A stretch of DNA of 64,000 bases from an uncultured Acidobacteriota bacterium. GTDB lineage: Bacteria; Acidobacteriota; Thermoanaerobaculia; Gp7-AA8; JAHWKK01. The translations under genes and the position numbers were made by a program. A model generated the notes under the pieces. That model was not told where the DNA came from. It did no database searches and worked only from the letters and a program-made list of their open reading frames with translations. The stretch spans positions 97,075 to 161,074 of the forward strand of contig CAWHHZ010000008.1 of the NCBI GenBank assembly GCA_963829355.1. The letters are read 5' to 3'. This document shows positions 2,669 to 53,652 of the stretch, in pieces (position 1 is the stretch's first letter; each line of letters begins with the position of its first letter).

Positions 2669-3586
2669 ATGAGATCCGTCCGTGTGTCGTGTCTGTCCCT
2701 GCTCATTGTTCTCATGGCTACCCTGGGCGTCGTGGGTGCTGACGCCGAAGAGTGTGGGTGGCTGCCGGTCGAACGGTTGAACGAAGCGTTCCCCGATCAG
2801 GCGCCATGGTCGACGATGGTCGGCGGCTCGATCGGCTCATGCAAGTTTCTCGGGAGCGGCTTGCCTCACCTCTTCTCCGCGACTCAGATCGTGAAGGCGA
2901 CGCCGAAAGAAGCTGAGGAGTACGTCAGCGCTCTGCGTGAGGGCATGAAGGAGAATTACGAGGTGACCGCAGCGCCGGAGCTCGGTGAGCTCGCCTTCCG
3001 CTACCGACCGCGCCCGGAGGTCGATGACAGCGGGCGTGCCGTCTTCTTCGTCGGACATCGAGACAGGGTCGTCGTGATGTCGTCGCTCAATTTCCAGAAG
3101 GCGATCACGGAGGAGCAGATGGTCGCGGCGCAGCCTCTCATTCACGCCGCACTCGCTCTGGCTGATGACGAGAAGGCGATCGAAGCCGCGACGAGTTGCC
3201 CCTGGTTCGACGAGACGGTTCTCGATGAGCTGTTCGGCGGTGCTTCCTACAGTGAGAATGTCTTCGGCGAAACGAGTTGTATGGCGAACGTCGACACGCG
3301 CGTGCTCATGGTCAAGATCCTCGAGACGGATAATCCCGCGGGGCTCATTGAATCGATGAGCAGCCTTGCAGGGGGTTCGTGCACGAGCGAGAGGTTGCCA
3401 GGCCTGGCCGGAGCGGCGGTGCTGGAGTATGCCTGCTCGAGCGGTAATCCACGAGCATCGGTGCGGCTGGCTGCCGGTGCCGCGATGATCGAATACACCT
3501 TCGCTCCCGGAGAGGAACCGACAGCTGAGGAGCGGGCTCTTCTGATCGAGCTGGCGCGGCATGCTCTGAAACGCGCCGGCGGCTGA
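2669..3586 (+). CDS. secreted hypothetical protein (Cys-containing)
   Basis: ORF 2588..3586. The likely start is the internal Met, which gives the signal peptide 'MRSVRVSCLSLLIVLMATLGVVGADA'. No recognisable domain. Confidence 0.4.
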   Translation: MRSVRVSCLSLLIVLMATLGVVGADAEECGWLPVERLNEAFPDQAPWSTMVGGSIGSCKFLGSGLPHLFSATQIVKATPKEAEEYVSALREGMKENYEVTAAPELGELAFRYRPRPEVDDSGRAVFFVGHRDRVVVMSSLNFQKAITEEQMVAAQPLIHAALALADDEKAIEAATSCPWFDETVLDELFGGASYSENVFGETSCMANVDTRVLMVKILETDNPAGLIESMSSLAGGSCTSERLPGLAGAAVLEYACSSGNPRASVRLAAGAAMIEYTFAPGEEPTAEERALLIELARHALKRAGG

Positions 3587-3742
3587 AGCTGCGGGAGCGG
3601 ATACCGCAGCTTGCCAGAGATCATGCGCCAGTCACTGCCCGGTCGCACGAAGATCCTCTCATCTCCGGTGACGGATGAGGCGCCCGCGCACTCCGGCGAG
3701 AAACGTGAGGTAGTAGCCGAGAACGATTCCACCGTGTTCAGC

Positions 3743-3811
3743 GACAATTAGACCTGCGGGCCAACGACAACTAGAACTGCGGGTCAACGACAATTAGATC
3801 TGCGGGGTCGG
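3743..3811. repeat. 3 tandem 23-bp repeats (GACAATTAGACCTGCGGGCCAAC-like); possible IS21-type multiple terminal repeats
   Basis: Direct reading gives gacaattagacctgcgggccaac / gacaactagaactgcgggtcaac / gacaattagatctgcggggtcgg, head to tail. They lie about 60 bp upstream of a truncated transposase-like HTH ORF. Confidence 0.8.
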
Positions 3812-3869
3812 ATCTCCACAGAACGACGCCGGGGTGATCGCGTAGAGTCCCCTCTCCGAAGGGAGGGCG

Positions 3870-4031
3870 ATGAAGTCACGCCGGCAAGTGGAGACACTGA
3901 TGAAAGAGTTGAGTGAGGGAGCGACGCTGGAGAGAGCGGCGCTGCGAGCGGACATGAGCGAGAACACGGCTCGCCGCTACCGTAATGGAGCCCCACCGCA
4001 GGGATCGCGGCCGGTGGAACGGGCGGGTTAG
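3870..4031 (+). pseudogene. IS21-family istA-like transposase fragment (N-terminal HTH only, 53 codons)
   Basis: ORF 'MKSRRQVETLMKELSEGATLERAALRADMSENTARRYRNGAPPQGSRPVERAG' fits the pattern of IS21 IstA N-terminal HTHs ('..G.si..IA...g.sE.TvrRYl...pPp'). It then terminates. It is preceded by the 3x23-bp tandem repeats, which would fit an IS21 left end. Confidence 0.4.
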
Positions 4032-4038
4032 GAGCCGG

Positions 4039-4272
4039 CTACTTAGTCGCGGATTTCTTTTCGGGAAGGGCCGAGATGACTGAGCGGAGGAACGTGTTTA
4101 CCGACTCGGCCGAATCGAAGACTTCCGCCACGTCGGGATCCAAGACCACTGCGACGGAGCCCTTCTCGAACTCCGCAGCGAAGCGGTTCGGTTTCGACTT
4201 CGAGTAGTCAAAGTCGTACTCATCGCGTATCTCGTCGGATCGTTCAGCGTTCCTCGTATCTTCGTCGCTCAT
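4039..4272 (-). CDS. brnA: BrnA antitoxin (RHH-type, BrnT/BrnA system)
   Basis: 77 aa with '...YDFDYSKSKPNRFA...GSVAVVLDPDVAEVFDSAESVNTFLRSV', typical of BrnA. ATGA start/stop overlap with upstream brnT. Confidence 0.7.
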   Translation of the reverse strand: MSDEDTRNAERSDEIRDEYDFDYSKSKPNRFAAEFEKGSVAVVLDPDVAEVFDSAESVNTFLRSVISALPEKKSATK

Positions 4273-4514
4273 GAGCAGTCACTTCTCTGGTTGAAAACAG
4301 CCGAATGCTGTTGGTTCTTTCCGTGAAGCATACCCGCAGGAGGCGTCCGCCTCGAATGACCGACGATGATCTCTCGCGACTCGCCCTCGGAATGATCGGG
4401 ATCATGATGAATGCGGGCGAGAGAATCGCCGAAAACAGTCAACGCCTCGGCGAAGGTTACTGAATGATCCCTGAGGTTCAGCGCCGCCTTTCCCGGATCC
4501 CACGTAAATTTCAC
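4269..4514 (-). pseudogene. brnT: BrnT toxin (DUF497), disrupted by a 1-nt frameshift
   Basis: The N-terminus 'MKFTWDPGKAALNLRDHSVTFAEALTVFGDSLARIHHDPDHSEGESREIIVG' matches BrnT. The conserved C-terminus ('GRLLRVCFTERTNSIRLFSTREVTAHERRRYEER') is readable only in the +1 frame from about codon 53. GTG start. Confidence 0.65.
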
Positions 4515-4558
4515 GCGGCGAGTCTACCTCGGAGAAACTGGAGCCCCTGACGGTAGAG

Positions 4559-4657
4559 CTGAGCCGCCAGCGCACGCCTCAGCAATGGTGCAAGATTGAG
4601 CAGTGGCAGCGCGTGCGCTGGCCGGCTCGAGCGACTTGTTATGCGGCCGTAGTTCAG
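4559..4657. repeat. 98-bp direct repeat copy 1 flanking hicAB; contains a 17-bp-stem hairpin (GAGCCGCCAGCGCACGC ... GCGTGCGCTGGCCGGCTC)
   Basis: About 93% identical to 5150..5248 over about 98 nt. The internal inverted repeat is read directly from the sequence. Confidence 0.85.
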
Positions 4658-9678: not shown

Positions 9679-11186
9679 TGATCGGCGCGGCGCTGGTACT
9701 CGCGCTTCTCCTTACTGACCGCGCCGGGCCGGCTGCGGACGAACGCTTCTCCGAATCGATCTCGGTGACTCGCTACGTCGTGGAAGTCGGAGTCACCGAT
9801 CATGCGGGGCGCGTTGCGGGAGAGCTCGGTCCTTCCGACTTCACCGTCGAAGTGAGCGGAATCCCCGCGAGCGTCGAAAGCGCCTTGTGGTTTGGCTCAG
9901 ACGGTGAGGCCGGGGCTCCGGAACAAGGACGTCACCTCCTGATTTTTCTCCAGTCGGACTTCGCCCGCAATCGAGCGCGCATGCTCGGACACATGACCTT
10001 CGTCAATTCGTTCGCACCTTCAATCGTGGCAATGCTGCGCCCGCACGATGAAGTCGCCGTCGTCTCGTTCGATTCGCATCTGCGCGTGCTGTCGGATTTC
10101 ACGAACGATGGGGACCGGATACTGGCTGCCGTCAAACGCTCTCTCAGCATCGGTGCAGGCGAGGCGGTGGTGGAAGCCGCGTCGGACGGAAGTCTCTCCA
10201 CTGCACTCGAAACGACGAAGAGATCAACCGACGTCGAAGGCGCTCTACTCGACATTGCTCATGCACTGCAGAAGGTGAACGGCGAGAAGGTCGTGATCCT
10301 CGCCGGGTGGGGGTTCGGGGAGACTCTCTGGCGCAAAGGAGGTGGTTCCGGCGTGACACTTCCGGACGCGTGGGGCCGTGCGGTGAAGATCTTCCAGGAC
10401 GAGCGAGTGAGGATCATCACCGTGAGTGCCGACACGGGTCAGCTTTCATACAGTCTGGCGATGTCCTCACGATCTACCGGTGGCGCGTTCGTTTCCTCTG
10501 CGGCGGGCTTCTCCACTCAGTCACTCGCCGTGATCGAAGGAGTCCTGACCGGCCGCTATGAACTGGTGCTGTCGCTTCCGGAAGCGCTCGAACCAGGAAC
10601 GCATGATCTGATGGTCACGGTCGAGGGAGGCCGGCACGTCGTCGCTCCCGCAACGATCGTGGTTCAGAGCTCCAAGGCGGCGTACAGCGAGTCGATTGCG
10701 CTACTGAACGCGGGTCTCGAAGCAGAAGCACTCGCCGCTCTGCAGCAATGGATCGAGAACGATACCCCTGACTCTGATTCTCTTCGTTCGCATCTGGATG
10801 AGCTGGCTCGGGGGGAACAGTGGCGAAGTGCTCTGGCTGTTGCTCTCGAGTTGGAGCGGCGTCACGAACTCGACGACACGACGACGAGAGAACTGATGCA
10901 GGCACGCGCGGGCGTAGAGCGCGCCGACCGTCTGGCGGCGCAGGAACGAATGACAGCCGCGAGACGTGACTTGTTGGAGGGTTCCAGAGAGCTCGCGAAA
11001 GAGCATCTCGACGAGGCGCTGAGGCTCTTCCCTGACTTCGCCGAGGCTCTCTACGAGCGGGGAATGCTTCTTCTTGCTGAAGGGGCCTTGGAGAGTGCAG
11101 CGATCGATCTCGAGAGGTGTCTGCGCCTGGAACCGGCCGGCATGCATTCAACGGATGTCCGCGCTCTGTTGAAACAGATCCGGTAG
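9678..11186 (+). CDS. acidobacterial-type VWA-domain protein (TIGR03436-like N-terminus) with C-terminal TPR repeats
   Basis: 502 aa. The N-terminal 'FSESISVTRYVVEVGVTDHAGRVAGELGPSDFTVEVSGIPASV' pattern is shared with the 1297-aa gene at 38517. TPR-like helices at the C-terminus. TAATG overlap with the upstream gene. Confidence 0.6.
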   Translation: MIGAALVLALLLTDRAGPAADERFSESISVTRYVVEVGVTDHAGRVAGELGPSDFTVEVSGIPASVESALWFGSDGEAGAPEQGRHLLIFLQSDFARNRARMLGHMTFVNSFAPSIVAMLRPHDEVAVVSFDSHLRVLSDFTNDGDRILAAVKRSLSIGAGEAVVEAASDGSLSTALETTKRSTDVEGALLDIAHALQKVNGEKVVILAGWGFGETLWRKGGGSGVTLPDAWGRAVKIFQDERVRIITVSADTGQLSYSLAMSSRSTGGAFVSSAAGFSTQSLAVIEGVLTGRYELVLSLPEALEPGTHDLMVTVEGGRHVVAPATIVVQSSKAAYSESIALLNAGLEAEALAALQQWIENDTPDSDSLRSHLDELARGEQWRSALAVALELERRHELDDTTTRELMQARAGVERADRLAAQERMTAARRDLLEGSRELAKEHLDEALRLFPDFAEALYERGMLLLAEGALESAAIDLERCLRLEPAGMHSTDVRALLKQIR

Positions 11187-24031: not shown

Positions 24032-24302
24032 GTGAACATGATCAGATTCTCACCGGGCAGCCTCGTGAAGCTGACGTTCCCGTTGGAGCCGGAGGTCGAT
24101 GACCTCGATCGAGCGGCGGCTGACGAAGCCGTTCTATCGGATTCATCGTTCCACGATCGTCAATGCAGACGCCGTTCACGAGGTCGAAACCGATCGTGCC
24201 GGCACGACCGCGGTGATTCTCAAAGACGGTACCCGACTCAGCTCGAGTACCTCCTACCGCGACAGCGTGGAGGCAATGCTGGAGGATTCAACTAGCTTCT
24301 GA
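24032..24302 (+). pseudogene. LytTR DNA-binding domain remnant (C-terminal fragment, receiver domain absent, internal frameshift)
   Basis: ORF 24099..24302 has 'TKPFYRIHRSTIVNADAVHEV...ILKDGTRLSSSTSYRDS' (a LytTR core). The upstream 'SLVKLTFPLEPEV' is in another frame. There is no room for a receiver domain before the stop of the preceding gene at 23795. Confidence 0.5.
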
Positions 24303-24312
24303 GTGGCCGTAG

Positions 24313-25238
24313 ATAGGGGTAGGGAGAGGCCCTTAGTTAGGCCTCCCCCTCCCTCCGAACCGGACGTGCGGATCTCCCGCATCCGGCTCTCCGGTTGGTG
24401 AGTTACCTGCGATAGGGCTGTCGGACGTTCGCGTGTTCTGCGCTGAGGATGAACAGACCGCGATCGGCAAAGAAGCGGTTGGGCCAGCGATAATGGTCGT
24501 GTCCTCGTCCACTGCGACGGCGGTGAGAGCGTCGGAACTTGCGTCTGCTCAGCACCGCCCGAAGGCGATACCGAACGTACTGATCAAGCTGCGTGAACGC
24601 ACCGCGTGAGCTGTGTTTGAAGAACGCGAACCATCCTCGCAGGACCGTTGCCTCCTTTGACCCCTCTTTCGAGGGCTTCCAGCATGCGTTCGGTCCAGAC
24701 TCGGGCTTCGACCCATGGCCATCGGCCTCGGATCTCTCCGCCGCGCTCTAGGTCTCCCACTGCTCGCGGTTGGTCTTGCTCTTGTCTGTCTGTCACGCAT
24801 TCACCTTCCTGCCCTCCTTTGCTCCACGCCCGTTACGACGCTTCCCAGCTCTTATGAGGGCTCTGACTTCCCGCCCACGGTCATCCGCCGCGGCGGGGGA
24901 TCCCCGGTTCACTACACTCGAACTTCCTACCGTTCTGTCTCCAACCACACCCATGACTCCCTCGGTCGCTTTCTCTTCACGCTCTTTCCCTCAGCGCCAG
25001 GGCTCTCCCTTAGGGCCGTTTCCCGTCTGCACCCACCGGGTCTTCGGGCTTCGGACAAACCCCGCAGCCTCGCCAGTCATAAATGCCGAATCGAGTTTCT
25101 CTCGTACGGACCGGTAGTTCACCTCCAGTTGCTCTCCACCCCGCCTTACGGCGACGCAGTTACTTTCGGTTGTCAGCCAGTGAGCGGCTGGCTGGAAGGG
25201 ACTCTCACCCTTCTGTTCAAGTGCGCTCCCGAGCGCAC
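24313..25238 (-). mobile_element. group II intron (about 926 nt) with internally deleted intron-encoded protein
   Basis: On the minus strand, the 5' end is GTGCG at 25238. Domain V is GAGCCGGATGCGGGAGATCCGCACGTCCGGTTC at 24389..24357. Domain VI is a helix GGGAGGGGGAGGCC/GGCCTCTCCCTACCCC with a bulged A at 24320, 7 nt from the 3' end '...CUAU' (24313). The IEP remnant at about 24440..24796 has 'RVWTERMLEALERGVKGG' (RT domain-0 N-terminus) joined directly to 'RGWFAFFKHSSRGAFTQLDQYVRYRLRAVLSRRKFRRSHRRRSGRGHDHYRWPNRFFADRGLFILSAEHA' (domain X / C-terminus), with the RT core missing. Confidence 0.75.
24357..24389 (-). ncRNA. group II intron catalytic domain V
   Basis: 33-nt hairpin with the AGC triad and two-nucleotide bulge. 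It matches the bacterial DV consensus GAGCCGUAUGCG...CGCACGUACGGUUC at 30 of 33 positions. Confidence 0.8.
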
Positions 25239-25359
25239 GGGGTCGGACGTCCTCGTCCGATGAGTCCCGGCGTCCTCGCCGAGGACCTCATGCTGCGCAG
25301 CGCCAACTTACGCGGAGCCGGGGACGGCTTCGCGCCATCGGACGGGGACGTCCGACCCC
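25239..25359. other. long hairpin (24-bp stem, 73-nt loop) immediately 5' of the intron insertion point and 17 nt downstream of the TPR gene stop
   Basis: GGGGTCGGACGTCCTCGTCCGATG (25239-25262) is the reverse complement of CATCGGACGGGGACGTCCGACCCC (25336-25359) with one mismatch. Confidence 0.7.
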
Positions 25360-25375
25360 CACTGCGGGCTGCACC

Positions 25376-27574
25376 TCACCACTGCGCCGCGAGATCGGGA
25401 CGGCCGAGACTTCGGTAGGCCTCGGCGATCATCGCTTTCGTCGAGGGTGATGGGTTGGAGGCCGAGAGGGCACGCATCGTTCGCTCGGCCTCGCCGGCAT
25501 TTCTCTGAAGAAGCTGAATCGCGGCGAGTCGGATGTACGCTTCCCTGTTCTGAGGGAACTCGTCCGCTTCCCGGCGGAACGCTCCCTTCGCCTCGTCGAG
25601 CCGGCCCTGGCGCGCAAGGATGTCTGCTCGGGTGAACGATTCACCAGCAACCCGATCTCCCGGCGTCGACTCCAGTTGTTCGAGGATTGCGAGCGCCTCG
25701 TCGAGACGACGCTGCGCCACCAGCGCCTGCGCGCGGACGACGAGTGCATCATCCCGCGTGGCGCTGTCGGCGAGTGCCGCACCGAGGGCCCCGTCCGCTT
25801 CGGCGGCTCGACCGATCCCGATCAGAGCACGTGCTCGCACCAGCGCGGCACTCGACGGATGCGCATCTTCGCGCGAGATCAGCGTGATCGAGTGCCTCCT
25901 GGAACTGACCCAGCTTCAGATACACCTCTGCAAGAGAGAGAGCTGTTCCCGGGGCGAGCAGCGGTGAAACGTCGATGGTTCTGCGGTACGCATTGACCGC
26001 GTCCTCATACCGGCCCGACAGATCGTACGCGCGGCCGAGAAGGGTCCATGCGTCCGCAAAGGCCGGATTTCGCGACAACGATCTTCTCGAGCGCGACGAC
26101 GGCGCTCGCACTATCGCCCTCCCGGATCGATCGGGTGGCCACCATGTAGGCTTCCAGATCACCGATACGCTCCTTTGGATCTGGCAGGGCGCCATTCGAG
26201 CTCGCACCTCCGCCACCGAGATACCCGAGCGCCGAGAGCTTCGAAGCTTCTTCAGACGAAATCGCGGTCGGAGCGGCGAGCGCGCGATCATACGTCAGCG
26301 AGCTCGTCCCGCATCGACGCGTACGTCCTTCGCTCGCCCGCGAGGATGTTGCGGGCCTCGCCCGGATCGCTCGACAGATCGTACAACTCCGGCGACGGTG
26401 CCTCGATGTAGTGGAACGTCGTGCCGACGAGCGACGCGAGATCGCTCCACCCGAGATGGATGCGCGGGTACATCGTCTCGCTGTAGATGCGACGTTCTTC
26501 AGCGTCGTCATCAGTGAGCAACGAATGCCCTGCGACCGCGGATGGATCGTAATCGAGACCGGCAAGCGTCGCGATCGTGGGAAAGATATCGATCAGTCCG
26601 ACGGGCCGTTCGACTCTGGTCGCCGCCTGCTCGGAACCGGCAAGTTTGACGAACAGCGGAACGTGGATCGCTTCGCGGTAGAGAAAGATTCCGTGCTCGC
26701 TCTCGCCGTGATCACCGAGACCCTCTCCATGATCGGACATGAAGATGATCGTCGCTCCGTCGTAGAGACCGCTCTGGCGGAGATGGTCGAGGAACCGCCC
26801 CACGTAGGCATCTGCCGTGGCAATTTCGCCGTCGTATGGACGGTCGGCGTACGCTTTTGCAAACGGCTCCCCCGGCTCGTATGGGGTGTGAGGCTCGAAC
26901 AGGTGGACGAACAGAAAGAATTGGTCGGAGCCAACTGAGTCGATCCACTCGAGTGCGGACGATACCGTGAGGTCACCGCTTCGCTGGATCTCTCCCACGA
27001 TCGCACCGGGCATACTCTCCATCTCGTCGTCGTAGTGGTCGAACGCGGCTCCGAGACCGGTCTCCTTCCGCAGTACGTATGCCGACACGGCTCCCCCGGT
27101 CATGTATCCCTTTTTCTTCAGCAACAGAGGCAGCGACGGCATCGTCGGATCGAAGCGGTATCCGAGGTTGTTGCGGACTCCAGTCGCCGCGGGGAGCCTG
27201 CCCGTGAGCATCGATACGTGCGAGGGGAGCGTGAGCGGGACCTGCGAGTACGCATTCTCGAACACGATCGAGTCGGCAGCGAGCGCATCGATCGCAGGCG
27301 TCTCGACACCCGTTGCTCCGTAGACCGGAAGATGATCGGCCCGCAGAGTATCGACAGAAATGATAATGACCGGACCGGAGGCGGCAGGCGAGGACACGTC
27401 CTCGCGGCCACAGGCGGACGTCAGGAGAAGCAAGAGGACGAAAGATGAAAGATGAAAGATGAAAGATGAAGGTCGTGGCACTGCGGGGATTTCATTGCTC
27501 ATCGTTATGCCTTCGCTCATAGCTCCGCCTCCATCGCTCCGCTCCGTCCTTTCATCGTTCATCTCATCGTTCAT
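25376..27574 (-). pseudogene. sulfatase-like hydrolase/transferase fused to TPR repeats (paralog of 27614..29701). The sulfatase domain ORF is intact and the TPR half is broken by about 3 frameshifts
   Basis: ORF 26288..27574 is the sulfatase domain ('IIISVDTLRADHLPVYG'). The linker and TPR regions align to the intact paralog but are spread over ORFs 26005..26565, 25749..26291 and 25376..25840 in three frames. Confidence 0.55.
27437..27471. repeat. (GATGAAA)x5 heptamer array, lying inside the signal-peptide codons of the minus-strand sulfatase gene
   Basis: The reverse complement encodes 'PSSFIFHLSSFV' of the ORF 26288..27574 N-terminus. Confidence 0.85.
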
Positions 27575-27628
27575 CTTTCATTCGTTCATCGTTCATCGTT
27601 CATCGTTCATCGTTCATCGTTCGTTCAT
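27550..27628. repeat. (CGTTCAT)n heptamer array (about 6 perfect units plus degenerate units)
   Basis: Direct reading. It overlaps the stop codon of 27614..29701 and the 5' region of 26288..27574. Confidence 0.85.
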
Positions 27629-29701
27629 CACCTGCCGTGCCTCGGCGGCGAGTGAGCGCATTTGCGGATCGTCGTTGGTCTCGATTGCCTGGTTGAGTAC
27701 AGCATCTGCCTCAGTGGCACGTCCCTGTGCGCCAGTGACAAGCGCCAGGTTCACCCATGCCATCCGATGATCGGGAAACGCGGTGACCTCCGCACGGAAC
27801 GCCTGCTCAGCTTCCGGTGTGCGCCGGAGCTGGAGAAGTGCCTGACCGCGACGGAACTCGAGCTCTCGAATCGGAGGCTTCGGACCGCTGGCAGTCTTCG
27901 CTCTCACCTGATTGAGAAGATCGAGCTCACGCGCGATTTCGCCCCGTTCATGCGCGATCAGAGACAGGAGCATGAGCGGTTCCGTACGCGAGGAATCCGC
28001 CGCCGCCGATGCATTCGCTGCTCGTTCGGCGGCCTCGGTATTGCCCCGGGCCATTTCGATTCGCGCGATCAGATCGTTCGCGATCGCAGGTGCGTAATCG
28101 AGCGCGAGCTCGGCATACGTCCTCGCCTCGTCATAACGTCTCATCTCGTACGTGACTGAAGAGAGCGCGAGCGCTGTTTGCGGATTCCCCGGCGACCGCT
28201 CCATCTGGGTCTCGAGGGCGCTGAGGGCCGTCGCGTAGTCTCCCTTCTTTCGGCTCGCCGACGAGATCAGACCCCACGCCTGCAGAAAGTCGGGATTCTC
28301 GGCGACGATCGAGCGTCCGATCTTCAGAGCCTGTTCGAGGTCGCCGCGCTGGAACGCTCCGGCCCCTTTCCCGAACTCAGTGAGGAGACCGATCTTGTCT
28401 TTTGGATCGGGTCGAGAGCCATCAGATGCGGCACTTCCACCACCGAGGTATCCGAGCGACTCGAGCTTCGCCAGATCCTCCGGATCCGCGACGGCTGGCT
28501 CCGAGAAGGGATGCGCAGCGACCGTCGAACGAAGCTGTTCGCGCATCGCCGCCACGAGCCGCCGCTGCTCCGCGGCAATGTTGTCCCGTTCCGCCGGATC
28601 GCGCTGGTAGTCGTAGAGCTCGACCACCGGTGCATCGATCAGGTGGTGACGATTGTCGATCTTCGAGAAGAGCTCGCTCCAGCCGTAGTGGAGCCGTGGA
28701 TAGAACGTCTCGCTGTAGATCGCGCGGTCCGCGGGGATCTCTCCGAGCAGATCGATCCCCTCCGGCTGGTCCGGCGGCTCGATTCCCGTCAGCGCGAGGA
28801 CTGTCGGGAAGATGTCCGTCAGAGACACCGGAGCAGCGACCGTCTCACCCGCGCGTCGATTACCGGGGAGCTTGACGAGAAGAGGAACCTGGATTGCCTC
28901 CCTGTAGAGAAACACGCCGTGCTCGAGCTCCCCGTGGTCCCCGAGTCCTTCTCCGTGATCGGACAGGATGACGATGAGCGACTCCTCGTAGAGGCTCTTT
29001 TCCCTGAGGAAGTCGAGAAACCGGCCCACGATCTCGTCCGACCGCGCGACCTCGCCATCGTAGGCATCGTCGACATCGGTGGCCCACGGTTCAGGCGGGG
29101 TGTATGGATAGTGAGGTTCGTAGATGTGGAGAAACCCGAAGATCTTCCGACCGGTGACTGAATCGATCCAGCCTTCCAGTTTCCCTGCCGACTCCTCGCC
29201 GTTTCTCTGCCACGAGCTGATCGTATCGACCGGCGCCTCGGTCATCTCGTCGTCGTAGAACGAAAAGCCGCGAGAGATGCCGGTATCGCTTCTCAGGACA
29301 TAGCTCGAGACCGCGGCTCCTGTCTGATAGCCACTTCGCTGAAGGATCTCCTGAATCATTGGGAGATCCTCACCGATCGTATAGCCGATGTTGTCGCGGA
29401 CACCGTGCCTGTACGGCTGGGCTCCGCTGAGGATCGTCGTGTGCGATGGCAGGGTCATCGGGACGCTGCTGAATGCACGCTCAAAGAGGATTCCATCGGA
29501 ACGGAATTGATCGATTGCCGGAGTCGCGACGGCGTCGTATCCGTAGACTGGAAGACGATCCGATCGAAGCGTATCGATCGAGATAATGAAGACCGGCGGC
29601 GGCTCGATCACCGTGGCAGGCGCTGGGTCTTCGCCGCCACAGTTGATCAGCAAGGCGAGGATGCTCAACGGCAGGAGCAGAGTGGACAGGCAATTTCTCA
29701 C
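27614..29701 (-). CDS. sulfatase-like hydrolase/transferase with C-terminal TPR repeats (intact copy)
   Basis: 695 aa, GTG start. Lipoprotein-like signal ('LLINCGG'). Alkaline-phosphatase-superfamily N-terminal domain. C-terminal roughly 280 aa are TPR-like. Confidence 0.75.
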   Translation of the reverse strand: MRNCLSTLLLPLSILALLINCGGEDPAPATVIEPPPVFIISIDTLRSDRLPVYGYDAVATPAIDQFRSDGILFERAFSSVPMTLPSHTTILSGAQPYRHGVRDNIGYTIGEDLPMIQEILQRSGYQTGAAVSSYVLRSDTGISRGFSFYDDEMTEAPVDTISSWQRNGEESAGKLEGWIDSVTGRKIFGFLHIYEPHYPYTPPEPWATDVDDAYDGEVARSDEIVGRFLDFLREKSLYEESLIVILSDHGEGLGDHGELEHGVFLYREAIQVPLLVKLPGNRRAGETVAAPVSLTDIFPTVLALTGIEPPDQPEGIDLLGEIPADRAIYSETFYPRLHYGWSELFSKIDNRHHLIDAPVVELYDYQRDPAERDNIAAEQRRLVAAMREQLRSTVAAHPFSEPAVADPEDLAKLESLGYLGGGSAASDGSRPDPKDKIGLLTEFGKGAGAFQRGDLEQALKIGRSIVAENPDFLQAWGLISSASRKKGDYATALSALETQMERSPGNPQTALALSSVTYEMRRYDEARTYAELALDYAPAIANDLIARIEMARGNTEAAERAANASAAADSSRTEPLMLLSLIAHERGEIARELDLLNQVRAKTASGPKPPIRELEFRRGQALLQLRRTPEAEQAFRAEVTAFPDHRMAWVNLALVTGAQGRATEADAVLNQAIETNDDPQMRSLAAEARQVMNER

Positions 29702-35291: not shown

Positions 35292-35296
35292 AGCGG

Positions 35297-35333
35297 GGTT
35301 CAGAGGTTCAGGGTTCAGGGGTTCAGGGGTTCA
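35297..35333. repeat. (GGTTCAG)x5 heptamer array
   Basis: Direct reading, immediately after the stop codon at 35291. Confidence 0.85.
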
Positions 35334-35343
35334 ACTGAAAACG

Positions 35344-35485
35344 GTGGACGGGGAGGACGGGCGTGGACCCGGGTGGACGGAGTGGACAGAGACGTGGACG
35401 AAAGACTGGAAATGTCGCAGTGCCCATGGTCCACGTTTTTGTCCACGTCTCTGTCCACCCACGTCCACGCGTCCACGCCAGTCCA
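35344..35485. repeat. inverted arrays of GTGGAC (left) and GTCCAC (right) hexamer repeats, forming a roughly 55-bp imperfect long hairpin between convergent genes
   Basis: For example, GTGGACAGAGACGTGGACG (left) is the exact reverse complement of CGTCCACGTCTCTGTCCAC (right). Likely a bidirectional terminator built from repeats. Confidence 0.75.
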
Positions 35486-35506
35486 CGAGTTTGAGCTCTT
35501 GAACCC

Positions 35507-49837: not shown

Positions 49838-50506
49838 TCACTCTGTCCCGATTCCCGACCATCCGAGGCCGAGGCTCTGCGCCTCTTCGGTGAAGTCTTG
49901 CGGCACTGGAGCCTGGATCGACAGGCGCTCTCCGGTCTCCGGATGATTCATCGACAAGGTCCACGCGTGAAGCATCGGTCTCTTCTCTTCCTGTTCCGTT
50001 CCGTACAACCAGTCGGCGACCAGGGGATGACCGATCGACGACAGATGGACCCGGATCTGATGTGTGCGTCCGGTCATGAGCTCGATACTCAGGAGCGTGG
50101 CCCTGCTGCTGTGCGCAAGTGGCGTCAGACGCGTCAGTGCCCGCTTTCCACCCGCGCCAACCGCGAATGAGATCGGTCCGACACGCTCGAGCGGCGCGTC
50201 GATGAGCTGCGGCACCGCAAGCTCCCCCTCGACGAGTGCGAGATAGGTCTTGTGCACGTCCTTCCGCTCGAACGCACGCGTCACGCGCGGATTCATCTCA
50301 CTCTTTTTCGTGAAGAACATCACGCCGCTCGTCCCGCGGTCGAGCCGCTGCATGAGAAACACTTCCTCGCCGCGCTCCCGTGCCCGCTCGTCCATGATCG
50401 CGTGGAGGTTCGGCTCCTCAGCATCGTACGCCTGCTGGACCAGCAGCCCCGCGGGCTTGGCGATGAAAACGATGTAGTCGTCTTCGTAGAGGATCGGGGG
50501 GAGCAT
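49838..50506 (-). CDS. RluA-family pseudouridine synthase
   Basis: 'MQRLDRGTSGVMFF' (catalytic Asp motif), '...HQIRVHL'. Confidence 0.85.
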   Translation of the reverse strand: MLPPILYEDDYIVFIAKPAGLLVQQAYDAEEPNLHAIMDERARERGEEVFLMQRLDRGTSGVMFFTKKSEMNPRVTRAFERKDVHKTYLALVEGELAVPQLIDAPLERVGPISFAVGAGGKRALTRLTPLAHSSRATLLSIELMTGRTHQIRVHLSSIGHPLVADWLYGTEQEEKRPMLHAWTLSMNHPETGERLSIQAPVPQDFTEEAQSLGLGWSGIGTE

Positions 50507-50510
50507 ATCT

Positions 50511-50580
50511 GAACGATGAACGATGAACGATGAACGATGAACGATGAACGATGAACGATGAACGATGAACGATGAACGAT
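50511..50580. repeat. (GAACGAT)x10 perfect heptamer array abutting the rluA-family start codon
   Basis: Begins 5 nt upstream of the ATG at 50504-50506 (minus strand). It occupies the position where an RBS or promoter would be. Confidence 0.9.
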
Positions 50581-50661
50581 GAAACCGAACGCTTAATGGT
50601 GAGCTACGTTAGCCTATGAATCACCATCAGGCAAAGCAGCTCCAGACGCCGTTTTTCCTCT

Positions 50662-50691
50662 CATCGTTCAGCGTTCAGCGTTCATCGTTCC
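50662..50691. repeat. (CGTTCAG/CGTTCAT) heptamer array just 3' of the NamZ-like gene stop
   Basis: catcgttcagcgttcagcgttcatcgttcc. Confidence 0.8.
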
Positions 50692-50693
50692 AA

Positions 50694-51872
50694 TCACTCC
50701 TCGTACAACAGAAACTCCTCGCGCGCTTTCGCGAACGACCTGAGGGAGTCCTCCCATTCGTGGATCCAGGCGTCCAGATCCTCTCCGTTTTCAACGAGGT
50801 GACGGAAGCGGGCGGTTCCGGCGAGGAGATCGATCGCCAGACGATCGGCGACGAACTCGTATGGCTCGCGGCGCCAGTCGAACTTCTCCGGATCGAGATC
50901 ATGGGCGATCTTGATGCACCAGAGACCGGTGCGATATGGCTCGAAGGTGTTCCGGTCGGTGACGTGCAACTCGACACCGCCGCAGACTTTCCCCGCGTGT
51001 TTCTGAAACGTCGGCAGAAAGTAATGGGGCCTGAAGCGGACCCCTGGGAGCTCGAGATGATTCAGTGCCTCCGCGAGCCGGAAGGGGTCGAGCCACGGCG
51101 CGCCGAAGAACTCGAACGGATGAGTCGTACCACGTCCCTCGCTCAGATTGGTTCCCTCGACCAGACACATGCCGGGGTAAACGGTCGCCGTAAACACCGT
51201 CGGCATGTTCGGTGACGGAATGACCCAGGGCAGATCGGTGTCACCCCACCACATCGACCGTCGCCACCCGCGCATCGGCACCACGGTGAGTTTCGAATCG
51301 AGCTCAAAGGTTTTATTGAAATACCGGGCGAGCTCACCCGCGGTCATTCCATGCCGGGTAGGCAGAGGGAAAAGACCGACGAAGCTTTCGTATCCTTCCT
51401 CTCGCAGGTTTCCTTCGAGATGGATGCCGTCGATCGGGTTGGGGCGGTCGAGCACGATGACCTCGATGCCGAGCGGGGCCGCCACTTTCATGCAGAGCGC
51501 CATCGTATAGATGAATGTGTAGTACCGCGATCCGATGTCCTGAAGATCGATGACCAGCGCGTCGAGATTCGCAAGAAGTTCCGGTGGCGGCTCGAGTGCC
51601 TCCCGGCTCTTGCCGTAGAGCGAGTGAACGGGAAGACCCGTCAGCGGATCGCGCGAGCTCTCGACATGCGCCATATCCTGCTCCTCGCCCCAGATCCCGT
51701 GCTCGGGTCCGAAAAGCTGGACCAGCTTCCAACCCCTTCCCGCCTGGAGAAGCGACATCGAGTGCCGCAGGTCACGAGTTACGGCGCTCTGGTGGGTGAC
51801 GAGCCCGATCCTCTTGCCCATGATCGGCTTCGGGTTCTCGATGAGGACTTCCAGTCCGGGTACCACGCTCAT
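50694..51872 (-). CDS. DUF1343 / NamZ-family exo-beta-N-acetylmuramidase-like protein
   Basis: 392 aa. 'RIGLVTHQSAV...LFGPEHG' N-terminal Rossmann-like pattern and overall DUF1343 architecture. Confidence 0.7.
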   Translation of the reverse strand: MSVVPGLEVLIENPKPIMGKRIGLVTHQSAVTRDLRHSMSLLQAGRGWKLVQLFGPEHGIWGEEQDMAHVESSRDPLTGLPVHSLYGKSREALEPPPELLANLDALVIDLQDIGSRYYTFIYTMALCMKVAAPLGIEVIVLDRPNPIDGIHLEGNLREEGYESFVGLFPLPTRHGMTAGELARYFNKTFELDSKLTVVPMRGWRRSMWWGDTDLPWVIPSPNMPTVFTATVYPGMCLVEGTNLSEGRGTTHPFEFFGAPWLDPFRLAEALNHLELPGVRFRPHYFLPTFQKHAGKVCGGVELHVTDRNTFEPYRTGLWCIKIAHDLDPEKFDWRREPYEFVADRLAIDLLAGTARFRHLVENGEDLDAWIHEWEDSLRSFAKAREEFLLYEE

Positions 51873-52369: not shown

Positions 52370-52445
52370 GCCTTCCGAATCCTGAATGCTGAAAGAAAGG
52401 CAACGAGCATTCAACATTCAACGTCCCAGCCCCCCTTCTCCAAAC

Positions 52446-52510
52446 CGACAACCGACAACCGCCAGAACTGCCGAGAACTGAGAACCGAGAACTGAGAATT
52501 GAGAACCGAC
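52446..52510. repeat. heptamer arrays (CCGACAA)x2 and (GAGAACT-like)x5 in the divergent mogA/queA intergenic region
   Basis: Direct reading. Confidence 0.8.
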
Positions 52511-52593
52511 TCTTCAGTATGACCCCTCAGCATTCCCCGTTCCACATCTCCGGCATATTCTTTCGGTTCTCTGCATTCAAGACACGCGTTCGC

Positions 52594-53652
52594 ATGAAAA
52601 AGAGTGACTTCAATTACGAGCTCCCCCAGGAGCGGATCGCGCAGGAACCACGCCAGCGCGGGAAATCGAGGATGATGCTGGTCGATTCCGGAGACGGCTC
52701 GATCGCGCACCAGCACATCGCAGATCTCCCCCGCCATCTCGTCCCGGGCGACGTTCTCGTTCTCAACGATACGCGGGTCATCCCCGCACGACTCTTCGCC
52801 GCTCCCAGGCCGGGAATGACCCGGCCGATCGAGATTCTGCTCGCGAAGCGTCTCGCGCCCCACCGATGGGAATGTCTTGCAAAACCGGCGAAGAGACTGC
52901 GTCCGGGCGACCATCTCCAGATATCTGAGCAATTGCAGGCCACGATTATCGAGAAGAGCGAGGGAGGAATCGTCGTCGTCGCGTTCAGTACGGAGAGCGC
53001 GAGTGAAGACGCCTTCTGGCAGGCACTCGAGGCCGCCGGACGAATGCCCCTCCCTCCCTACATTCACCGTCAGTCCGCATCGGATGCGATCGAAGACCGG
53101 GTCGCGTATCAGACCGTGTATGCCGACCGGCCCGGTGCGGTCGCGGCACCGACGGCAGGACTCCACTTCACCAGGGAAATCCTCGACGAGATCGAACAAC
53201 GCGGTGTCGAGATCGTGCGCGTCACCCTGCACGTCGGAATCGGCACCTTTCGCCCCGTGCAGGTCGACGATGTCAGAGATCACGTGATGGACGAAGAGTG
53301 GTACGAGGTCTCTCCCCCTGCTGCCGGGACGATCAACCGTGCCCTCGACGACAACCGTCGAGTCGTCGCGGTGGGAACGACCGCGGTGCGGACTCTCGAG
53401 AGCGCCACCGGCCACGATGGACGGCTTCAGCCCGGGGAAGGACGGACTCGGCTTTTCATCACGCCCGGCTACCGGTTCAGGGCTGTCGGCGCTCTGCTGA
53501 CGAACTTTCATCTCCCGGAGAGCACGCTTCTGATGCTCGTCTCGGCATTCGCCGGCCGCGATCTGGTGTTGCGCGCGTACGCCGAAGCGATCGCTGAGTC
53601 GTACGCGTTCTACAGCTACGGCGACTGCATGTTCCTGCCACGAAGAGCGTGA
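52594..53652 (+). CDS. queA: S-adenosylmethionine:tRNA ribosyltransferase-isomerase
   Basis: 'MKKSDFNYELPQERIAQEP...RMMLVD...VLVLNDTRVIPARL...LPPYIHR', full-length QueA. Confidence 0.9.
   Translation: MKKSDFNYELPQERIAQEPRQRGKSRMMLVDSGDGSIAHQHIADLPRHLVPGDVLVLNDTRVIPARLFAAPRPGMTRPIEILLAKRLAPHRWECLAKPAKRLRPGDHLQISEQLQATIIEKSEGGIVVVAFSTESASEDAFWQALEAAGRMPLPPYIHRQSASDAIEDRVAYQTVYADRPGAVAAPTAGLHFTREILDEIEQRGVEIVRVTLHVGIGTFRPVQVDDVRDHVMDEEWYEVSPPAAGTINRALDDNRRVVAVGTTAVRTLESATGHDGRLQPGEGRTRLFITPGYRFRAVGALLTNFHLPESTLLMLVSAFAGRDLVLRAYAEAIAESYAFYSYGDCMFLPRRA

Follow-up and report, generated by a model that had tools for sequence, protein, structure and literature searches.

An inverted pair of heptanucleotide arrays at a tandem sulfatase-TPR gene junction of an uncultured Acidobacteriota bacterium, and its relation to heptamer arrays of Thermoanaerobaculia

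Two tandem arrays of heptanucleotides, termed here arrays A and B, are found at the junction of two neighbouring sulfatase-TPR lipoprotein genes in a 64,000-nucleotide (nt) stretch of DNA from an uncultured Acidobacteriota bacterium of the Thermoanaerobaculia (contig CAWHHZ010000008.1 of assembly GCA_963829355.1). The whole stretch, with a G+C content of 61%, is called the window, and positions are those of the window unless another locus is named. With moderate confidence, A and B are considered to form one inverted array pair, a member of an element class that is common in Thermoanaerobaculia, and to be tolerated by-products of a lineage-specific repeat-generating process, not a dedicated phase-variation switch. 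They are read as by-products because the downstream gene appears to be a decaying copy. The array pair possibly has a structural role in RNA or DNA. An earlier note, made from the letters of this DNA, had read the site as a contingency locus.

Tandem arrays in the window and in related loci were called with Tandem Repeats Finder (TRF). Array A has period 7, the unit GAAAGAT and 100% matches, and is a perfect tract of 31 nt. Array B, of the same period with the unit TTCATCG, was called at 27551-27622 with 10.4 copies, 88% matches and 8% indels. It lies outside the likely open reading frame (ORF); five of its approximately ten units, at 27582-27622, are perfect, and degenerate GATGAAA and GATGAGA units are found on the array A side. 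The (GATGAAA)x5 array that the earlier note placed at 27437-27471 does exist, but its copy count is slightly high, with one mismatch in each outer unit. The window contains three perfect period-7 self-match runs of 14 or more positions, at 27440-27470, 27582-27622 and 50510-50583. As such runs are absent from 100 Markov shuffles of the window, the arrays are real and far beyond chance. The other periods from 2 to 13 gave no run of this kind in the window, save one of period 8.

The genes relevant to the array locus are all on the minus strand (Table 1). The upstream paralog enters array B at its 3' end, where the array provides the four codons for its C-terminal MNER as well as the TGA stop codon (27614-27616), the latter in agreement with the earlier note. 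The catalytic-domain ORF downstream is intact by itself, displays 51% identity to the catalytic domain of the upstream paralog (BLASTP) and terminates directly after the first of three frameshifts. Its 428-amino-acid form is the source annotation (P0001). The first in-frame ATG (27574) is inside array B, and the conceptual N-terminus is MNDEMNDERTERSDGGGAMSEGITMSNEIPAVPRPSSFIFHLSSFVLLLLLTSAC followed by GRED. The spacer between the arrays has a Shine-Dalgarno (SD)-like GGAGG motif at 27528-27532, 7 nt ahead of an ATG at 27520. Another in-frame ATG follows at 27502, and on these sequence features both positions are the likeliest candidates for the true start of the downstream gene.

Table 1. 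Positions of the arrays, the adjoining genes and a second array pair in the window
Feature	Position	Strand	Description	Basis
Intact upstream paralog	27614..29701	-	695-amino-acid sulfatase (PF00884) and TPR lipoprotein; signal peptide MRNCLSTLLLPLSILALLINC	Pfam, translation
Array B	27551..27628	-	Minus strand (GATGAAC)~10	TRF, sequence
Spacer A-B	27471..27550	-	80 nt; hairpin loop	Sequence; RNA fold
Array A	27440..27470	-	Coding strand (TTCATCT = ATCTTTC)x4.4, perfect	TRF, translation
Sulfatase-like (alkaline-phosphatase superfamily) catalytic-domain ORF	26288..27574	-	428 amino acids from first ATG	PF00884, E=1.4e-42
Frameshifted TPR half of downstream gene	25376..26297	-		tblastn; three-frame view; TPR Pfam matches on fragments
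Second architecture like A/B, 23 kb off	50510..50690	+	(TGAACGA)x10.6, 77-nt spacer, (TCAKCGT)x4.3 inverted complement	TRF

The array A stretch translates on the minus strand as ...AVPRPSSFIFHLSSFVLLLLLTSAC... and encodes SSFIFHLSSF, within the hydrophobic part of a putative lipoprotein signal peptide. It is 28-60 nt upstream of the lipobox Cys codon (27410-27412); in alignments, this Cys coincides with the lipobox Cys in the paralog and in every ortholog. A start of the downstream gene on the 3' side of array A, which the earlier note had named as a finding that would overturn its reading, was considered and rejected. The sole start-type codon between array A and the Cys codon is TTG, the resulting MLLLTSAC is too short for a signal peptide, and the next ATG past the TTG falls inside the catalytic domain. 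Array A is therefore placed within the coding region, and the earlier assignment of the array to signal-peptide codons of the sulfatase gene stands, as only this frame can give a signal peptide. The traits of the sulfatase family (PF00884, a C-terminal TPR part and a lipoprotein leader) are present at the locus, where the downstream copy has a frameshifted TPR part and an atypical leader.

On the minus strand at 27574-27628, every three GATGAAC units of array B read ATG-AAC-GAT-GAA-CGA-TGA, a mini-ORF that encodes MNDER. Its stop codon overlaps the next ATG (ATGA), and array B therefore constitutes a chain of overlapping stop/start signals that begins at the stop codon of the paralog.

The frameshifts that the earlier note saw in the downstream half of the sulfatase gene were also detected by tblastn, with the upstream paralog and an intact ortholog (locus L003, 720 amino acids) as queries. 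The TPR half reaches the end of the protein across four frame segments, which are separated by +1 shifts near 26295, 26078 and 25865. All three are outside the heptamer repeats, and only one coincides with a short homopolymer. All are +1 insertions relative to the intact orthologs, with the last segment consequently back in the original frame, and homology is 48-52% throughout. Either a very recent decay or sequence errors would account for such a TPR half. The window has four ORFs of 1190-1307 amino acids without interruption; the indel error rate is therefore low and the shifts are taken as real. Judged by its sequence, the downstream gene with its three +1 frameshifts is in all appearance a decaying copy.

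Directly downstream of the frameshifted gene is a remnant of a group II intron (24313-25300, minus strand). It displays an Rfam domain V/VI match at 24313-24391 (58 bits, gathering score 40) and a weak match to D1-D4 at 25100-25214. A 70-amino-acid ORF at 24584-24796 contains VWTERMLEALERGVKGG, which is typical of the N-terminus of intron-encoded reverse transcriptases; a full-length reverse transcriptase ORF is absent from the remnant.

Arrays A and B are close to complementary. The reverse complement of unit A (GATGAAA) agrees with unit B (GATGAAC) at 6/7 positions, and with the degenerate B units on the spacer side perfectly. The predicted B x A duplex has an energy of -36.9 kcal/mol, compared with -14.8 +/- 4.0 for shuffled A, and 0 of 500 shuffles were as good. 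In the minimum free energy (MFE) fold of the segment from 27640 to 27425, array A pairs with the proximal part of array B, and the SD motif and the start codons are in the loop.

The best relatives of the locus are all from metagenome-assembled genomes (MAGs) of Thermoanaerobaculia/Acidobacteriota. In a set of related loci made up of 78 fetched loci and the window (1.2 Mb), arrays were counted at three or more copies. Period 7 is represented by 73 arrays, compared with 10 for period 5, 25 for period 8 and 17 for period 10. The density of period-7 arrays is 5.8 per 100 kb in the related loci and the ten closest metagenome loci and 0.73 per 100 kb in 70 more distant loci; the lineage is thus 8-fold denser in these arrays.

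Two period-7 arrays at a distance of 400 nt or less were taken as an array pair, and units that agreed at 6/7 or more positions after rotation were taken as inverted complements. Inverted complements make up 17 of the 24 neighbouring pairs, compared with 2.7% for random unit pairs, and a single pair (1/24) is direct. The inverted pairs fold to near-perfect hairpins with energies of -35 to -90 kcal/mol. Genes that the arrays adjoin or enter include tsaD, rnc and those for an RluA-type pseudouridine synthase, an SDR protein, an aldehyde dehydrogenase-like protein, an M28 peptidase, a deacetylase and a heptosyltransferase-like protein/glycosyltransferase, and arrays are also present between convergent genes. 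Most pairs are found in 5' leaders or between genes, and some are in frame within ORFs. In the loci set, 33 arrays are intergenic and most of those scored as genic are within about 200 nt of the 5' end of a longest ORF, fractions that are approximate because the gene map is crude.

The same unit recurs within a genome. GATGAAC is found at 27551-27622 and 50510-50583 of the window, GAAGGAT at two loci of L018, and CGGGATT/TCGGGAT at four loci within 21 kb of L024 (2557-2801, 9934-9963, 15233-15300 and 18670-18730), one of which has 22 copies in 157 nt. The L024 array at 9934 starts 5 nt past an ATG that overlaps the divergent start of a HrpB-like helicase gene.

Some of the arrays are part of coding sequences. 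A (CGGGATT)4.3 array of L024 encodes the n-region of the leader of a sulfatase paralog. In the orthologous M28-type peptidase genes of L031 and L035, both arms encode parts of the signal peptide, the purine-rich arm its Arg-rich n-region and the pyrimidine-rich arm its hydrophobic region. The array pairs of L037 and L057 encode a linker past a membrane anchor, and the GAAGGAT pair of L018 provides an ATG and an N-terminal extension of 21 amino acids. The L031 and L035 proteins are 87% identical over 465 amino acids with 0 gaps, the hairpin included; four-unit arrays inside ORFs are therefore not hypervariable on that time scale.

One perfect hairpin, (GATGAAC)4 - 16 nt - (GTTCATC)4, is found in another genome (L085, 10249-10325). 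It separates the stop codon of a sulfatase-TPR gene from rnc, the gene for RNase III, and ends 6 nt before the rnc ATG. Once transcribed, it would offer RNase III an ideal double-stranded substrate in the leader of the enzyme's own gene.

Within the window, the arrays at 27551, 35295, 44328, 50510, 50661 and 52473 are 0-52 nt from ORF ends. The array at 50510-50583 has its inverted partner at 50657-50690, with a unit complementarity of 6/7, and the RNA fold of the pair is -82.8 kcal/mol (z=-5.5). This pair fills the gap between the stop codon of gene 50694..51872 (minus strand) and an RluA-type pseudouridine synthase gene (PF00849) that starts at 50506, with 3 nt left on either side. It has a common layout with the sulfatase locus: approximately 10 units, a spacer of 77-80 nt and approximately 4.4 complementary units. 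The two loci were also considered as copies of one mobile element, and spacer homology was not accepted despite the matching arrays. Spacer similarity is weak, with a global score of P=0.0075 against mononucleotide shuffles and an optimal alignment that is offset from that of MAFFT.

Orthologs of the sulfatase-TPR lipoprotein have 690-720 amino acids and leaders of the type MRR..LLL..C. The L003 locus (68% identity) is syntenic with the window and has a TonB-dependent receptor gene, the paralog and then an intact ortholog. A (GATGGCA/GAGAGGC)n array is directly past the paralog stop codon, and a degenerate (CCTTCTG)4.4 array is inside the otherwise canonical leader MVGRRLNALRGSFCLLLSALCLLLPGC. 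The arms are 6/7 complementary and are paired in the MFE structure. Chance codon periodicity was considered as the source of the signal-peptide array of L003 and rejected. It was instead read as a decayed array, since four successive units vary by at most one base and 28/31 nt pair with the upstream array in the MFE structure. Covariation of whole units between the window and L003 is partly supported. Window B with L003 A gives a poor -7.9 and L003 B with window A gives -38.6, which pairs well because purine-rich and pyrimidine-rich arms pair promiscuously.

The 260-nt spacer of L003 contains two hairpin-rich elements of about 55 nt (9718-9772 and 9870-9925) and a partial third copy, of the form ..GAAGGGGTGCA.GGAAT...GCCGGTGGTGAGCGCGA.GCGCCACCA.CGGAT. 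The second copy overlaps the start codon of the sulfatase ortholog. This element may be a small dispersed repeat of the L003 genome.

The closest ortholog, L161 (70%), has no arrays, and the stop codon of the paralog and the start codon of the ortholog overlap as GCG-CGA-TGA / ATG-AGA (CGATGAG). Ordinary lipoprotein leaders are present in fourteen other orthologs. A comparison with these relatives suggests an ancestral state of two tandem sulfatase-TPR lipoprotein genes with the overlapping stop/start CGATGA, which the closest relative would have retained. Array B could then have formed by replication-slippage amplification of the 7-nt junction CGATGAA, and array A, the near-complement of array B, would have displaced the n-region of the usual MRR...LLL leader to give the atypical one.

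In more general terms, replication slippage would create and resize heptamer arrays. The complementarity of the arms may be kept by quasipalindrome correction, by selection for the hairpin or by both. Quasipalindrome correction is a process whereby intrastrand template switching copies changes between the arms of an imperfect inverted repeat. Selection would purge those arrays that are harmful to ORFs, and the survivors would therefore fill intergenic space up to the ORF ends, or tolerant coding segments.

Several points weigh against the interpretation of A and B as a by-product pair of this class. The arms are just 6/7 complementary, their 80-nt spacing is atypically long for the class, and the fold of the sulfatase locus over its full 216 nt does not outdo dinucleotide shuffles (z=-1.26). 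That array B came from the junction is deduced from one relative, and L003 has arrays at the same two positions, for which common ancestry followed by loss in L161 is not separable from independent origin. The pseudogene status of the downstream gene depends on correct assembly at three single-base positions. The gene map used for the related loci, longest ORF plus G+C at third codon positions, is crude.

The heptamer pair at the tandem sulfatase-TPR junction joins a known class of heptameric repeats with inverted pairing, here in Acidobacteriota. The closest known match is the (GGGAATC)n and (GGGGA(C/T)T)n heptameric repeats of Xanthomonas and Nostoc (PMC4692102). Those of Xanthomonas are 89-93% intergenic and near ORF ends, form 70-75 convergent pairs per genome, have conserved positions and show no link to pathogenicity genes (Rehm et al. 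2015, PMC4692102). Among the long simple sequence repeats (SSRs) of prokaryotes, heptamers form the commonest class (Mrazek 2007, as summarised in PMC4679880), and seven nucleotides have been proposed as a polymerase-contact length that favours slippage (Mrazek 2007, as cited in PMC4679880 and PMC4692102). The arrays described here have in common with the Xanthomonas and Nostoc repeats an excess of period 7 over other units, a mostly intergenic location close to an ORF end, the presence of one unit at many loci, frequent inverted stem-loop pairs, conserved positions and the lack of a tie to virulence or surface genes. They differ in the Acidobacteriota host and in having several unrelated unit families per genome, not one G-rich family, and a general G-quadruplex potential is therefore not expected here. 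In addition, several arrays run in frame into signal peptides, linkers or N-termini.

The short tandemly repeated repetitive (STRR) sequences of the cyanobacteria Calothrix and Anabaena are also heptanucleotides, with families that are common to heterocystous cyanobacteria. As with the present arrays, a few heptamer families are found in tandem at many non-coding sites of one genome. Inverted pairing, however, is not a defining trait of STRR sequences, and pairs are few in Nostoc (PMC4692102). The TAACTGA repeats of marine Beggiatoaceae resemble the present arrays in that heptamers are found a few nt upstream of start codons, often with no canonical ribosome-binding site (RBS), as at window 50510-50583 and in L025. 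In Beggiatoaceae, however, one heptamer is used genome-wide with 2-6 copies, there is only one indirect repeat among 170 sets and inverted pairing is essentially absent (PMC4679880).

The best-studied functional analogue is the 5' untranslated region (UTR) of hmw1A of Haemophilus influenzae, where (ATCTTTC)n and a downstream arm form a hairpin that is processed by RNase III and is required for expression and for change in repeat number (PMC12721329). Array A has the same heptamer ATCTTTC on the mRNA strand as hmw1A and hmw2A. Both systems have a repeat arm and a complementary arm whose pairing gives a long hairpin, located near the 5' end of a gene that encodes an exported protein; in the case of arrays A and B, the pairing is a prediction. 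The hmw tract differs from array A in its location in a 5'-UTR, its length of at least 11 units, its experimentally observed polymorphism and its partner arm, which is non-repetitive and G-rich. The classical intragenic contingency loci of Haemophilus, Neisseria and Campylobacter are tetranucleotide or homopolymer tracts at the 5' ends of lipooligosaccharide or adhesin genes (PMC11868660). All that they have in common with array A is an envelope gene whose 5' coding part contains a repeat of non-triplet units, such that a change in units shifts the frame. Unlike the present arrays, classical tracts are long relative to chance, polymorphic between isolates, devoid of an inverted copy and concentrated in host-interaction genes of host-adapted bacteria.

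The earlier note proposed that slipped-strand gain or loss of units toggles the frame of the sulfatase gene. In such a contingency locus, changes in array A would switch the lipoprotein on and off at high frequency in the population, and array B might in addition modulate expression. The mechanical part of the proposal holds. Array A is a non-triplet repeat inside an ORF, and in silico edits of 0 or +/-3 units leave an ORF of 397-435 amino acids, whereas +/-1 or +/-2 units cut it to 24-202 amino acids. The gene is predicted to encode a surface or periplasmic lipoprotein, and a TonB-dependent receptor is encoded in the same operon. Heptamer SSRs can drive phase variation, the hmw unit being that of array A (PMC12721329). 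The functional part is not supported. Array A has 4.4 units, compared with hmw tracts that never have fewer than 11 (PMC12721329), and the array of L003 at the same position is degenerate (83% matches) and in frame. Arrays of the same kind, many in inverted pairs, are found across the lineage at genes of all kinds, housekeeping genes included, and in all intergenic contexts, with no preference for surface or host-interaction genes. Arrays inside ORFs do not change in length between orthologs at 87% amino acid identity, and the gene itself is not otherwise intact, with three frameshifts unrelated to the repeats. A classic phase-variable surface gene is thus not supported here, and a contingency locus at this site, although partly supported, is unlikely. 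As to a second sequence of the same species, none was found in genomes, metagenomes or a set of 5.8 billion proteins, where the closest sequence has 70% amino acid identity. The 428-amino-acid protein was found only on its 497-kb source contig, its next relative being 70% identical. Exact-protein look-ups with three alternative sulfatase starts (27502 not among them) gave no match, nor did an exact 24-mer of the spacer against metagenome contigs, and the best matches in protein-guided scans were 68% identical in genomes and 61% in metagenomes.

A functional RNA hairpin has somewhat more in its favour and is still doubtful. It would form in a polycistronic mRNA in which B pairs with A and encloses the downstream RBS and start codon in a stem-loop; this might serve translation control, act as an RNase III-like processing site or stabilise the upstream cistron, with the number of units tuning expression. 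The B x A complementarity is significant, SD and ATG are in the loop of the predicted fold, and in L003 the corresponding arms pair over 28/31 nt across a 260-nt loop. Co-transcription of the two genes is plausible because a promoter and terminator scan of 27300-27800 revealed no promoter-like or terminator-like consensus between them. Many pairs in relatives are directly upstream of start codons, some without a visible SD (L025, window 50510), a perfect (GATGAAC)4 hairpin precedes rnc itself, and the heptamer hairpin of the hmw 5'-UTR provides a precedent (PMC12721329). On the other hand, RNA-level selection predicts a strand asymmetry, and among 21 pairs neither hairpin energy nor G-U content displayed a consistent trend; such selection was therefore not accepted. 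Pairs are also located within ORFs and between genes that converge, the closest ortholog lacks an element of this kind, and the z-score of the fold at the sulfatase locus is not significant. No Rfam family matched at the arrays, either at the gathering threshold across the whole window or at an E-value threshold across 24200-27700. A broader proposal, which extends the hmw analogy to the lineage, is that array hairpins of Thermoanaerobaculia are functional, genome-specific cis elements that spread to gene boundaries, exert slippage-tuned control of RNase III processing or translation, and are at times recruited into signal peptides. This seems improbable. Were it true, a free-living soil bacterium would have a working expression switch in the sulfatase array.

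It is most improbable that the arrays or their copy numbers, together with the three frameshifts, are errors of metagenome assembly. Short-read Logan contigs of ERR11718636 (L001 and L080) do break inside the long arrays, which indicates that copy numbers of 70-nt arrays are hard to assemble, and the three frameshifts are clustered within 430 nt. However, these independent contigs match the array edges base for base. Both hold neighbouring genes and end in long arrays with a sequence identical to that of the window; L001 encodes the exact upstream-paralog protein and ends within array B, identical as far as it reaches. Similar arrays with unique flanks are found in dozens of MAGs from different assemblers, and arrays are present at orthologous positions in independent samples. 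The four long ORFs of the window are uninterrupted, and just one of the three shifts is in a homopolymer.

The by-product interpretation carries a caution, in that a contingency-like non-triplet repeat at the 5' end of an envelope gene can arise without phase variation in heptamer-rich lineages. Paired arrays at approximately 6 per 100 kb, with genome-specific unit families, also provide a lead in soil Thermoanaerobaculia, a group dominated by uncultured members. Some of these arrays have become part of signal peptides, linkers and N-terminal extensions, and the loci are tractable for studies of how repeats spread, whether hairpins act in RNA or DNA and how repeats turn into coding sequence. 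Heptamer arrays are also predictable break points of short-read assemblies. Of these aspects, the pattern across the lineage and the recruitment of arrays as signal-peptide sequence most merit follow-up.

Other repeats of the window are of varied type. Between two convergent genes at 35295-35487, an array of five 8-mers, (GGGGTTCA)x5, begins 3 nt past a stop codon. It is followed by GTGGACG-type units, with inverted complements (CGTCCAC) about 40 nt further on, and the region folds at about -95 kcal/mol. A divergent intergenic region at 52408-52506 contains four different short heptamer arrays (CATTCAA, AACCGAC, GAGAACT and others), which have no obvious inverted partner and stop 12 nt before the start of gene 52519..53652. 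A 23-bp tandem repeat at 3742-3806, with 2.8 copies and 88% matches, is found within a segment of approximately 1 kb (3586-4600) that displays little coding signal.

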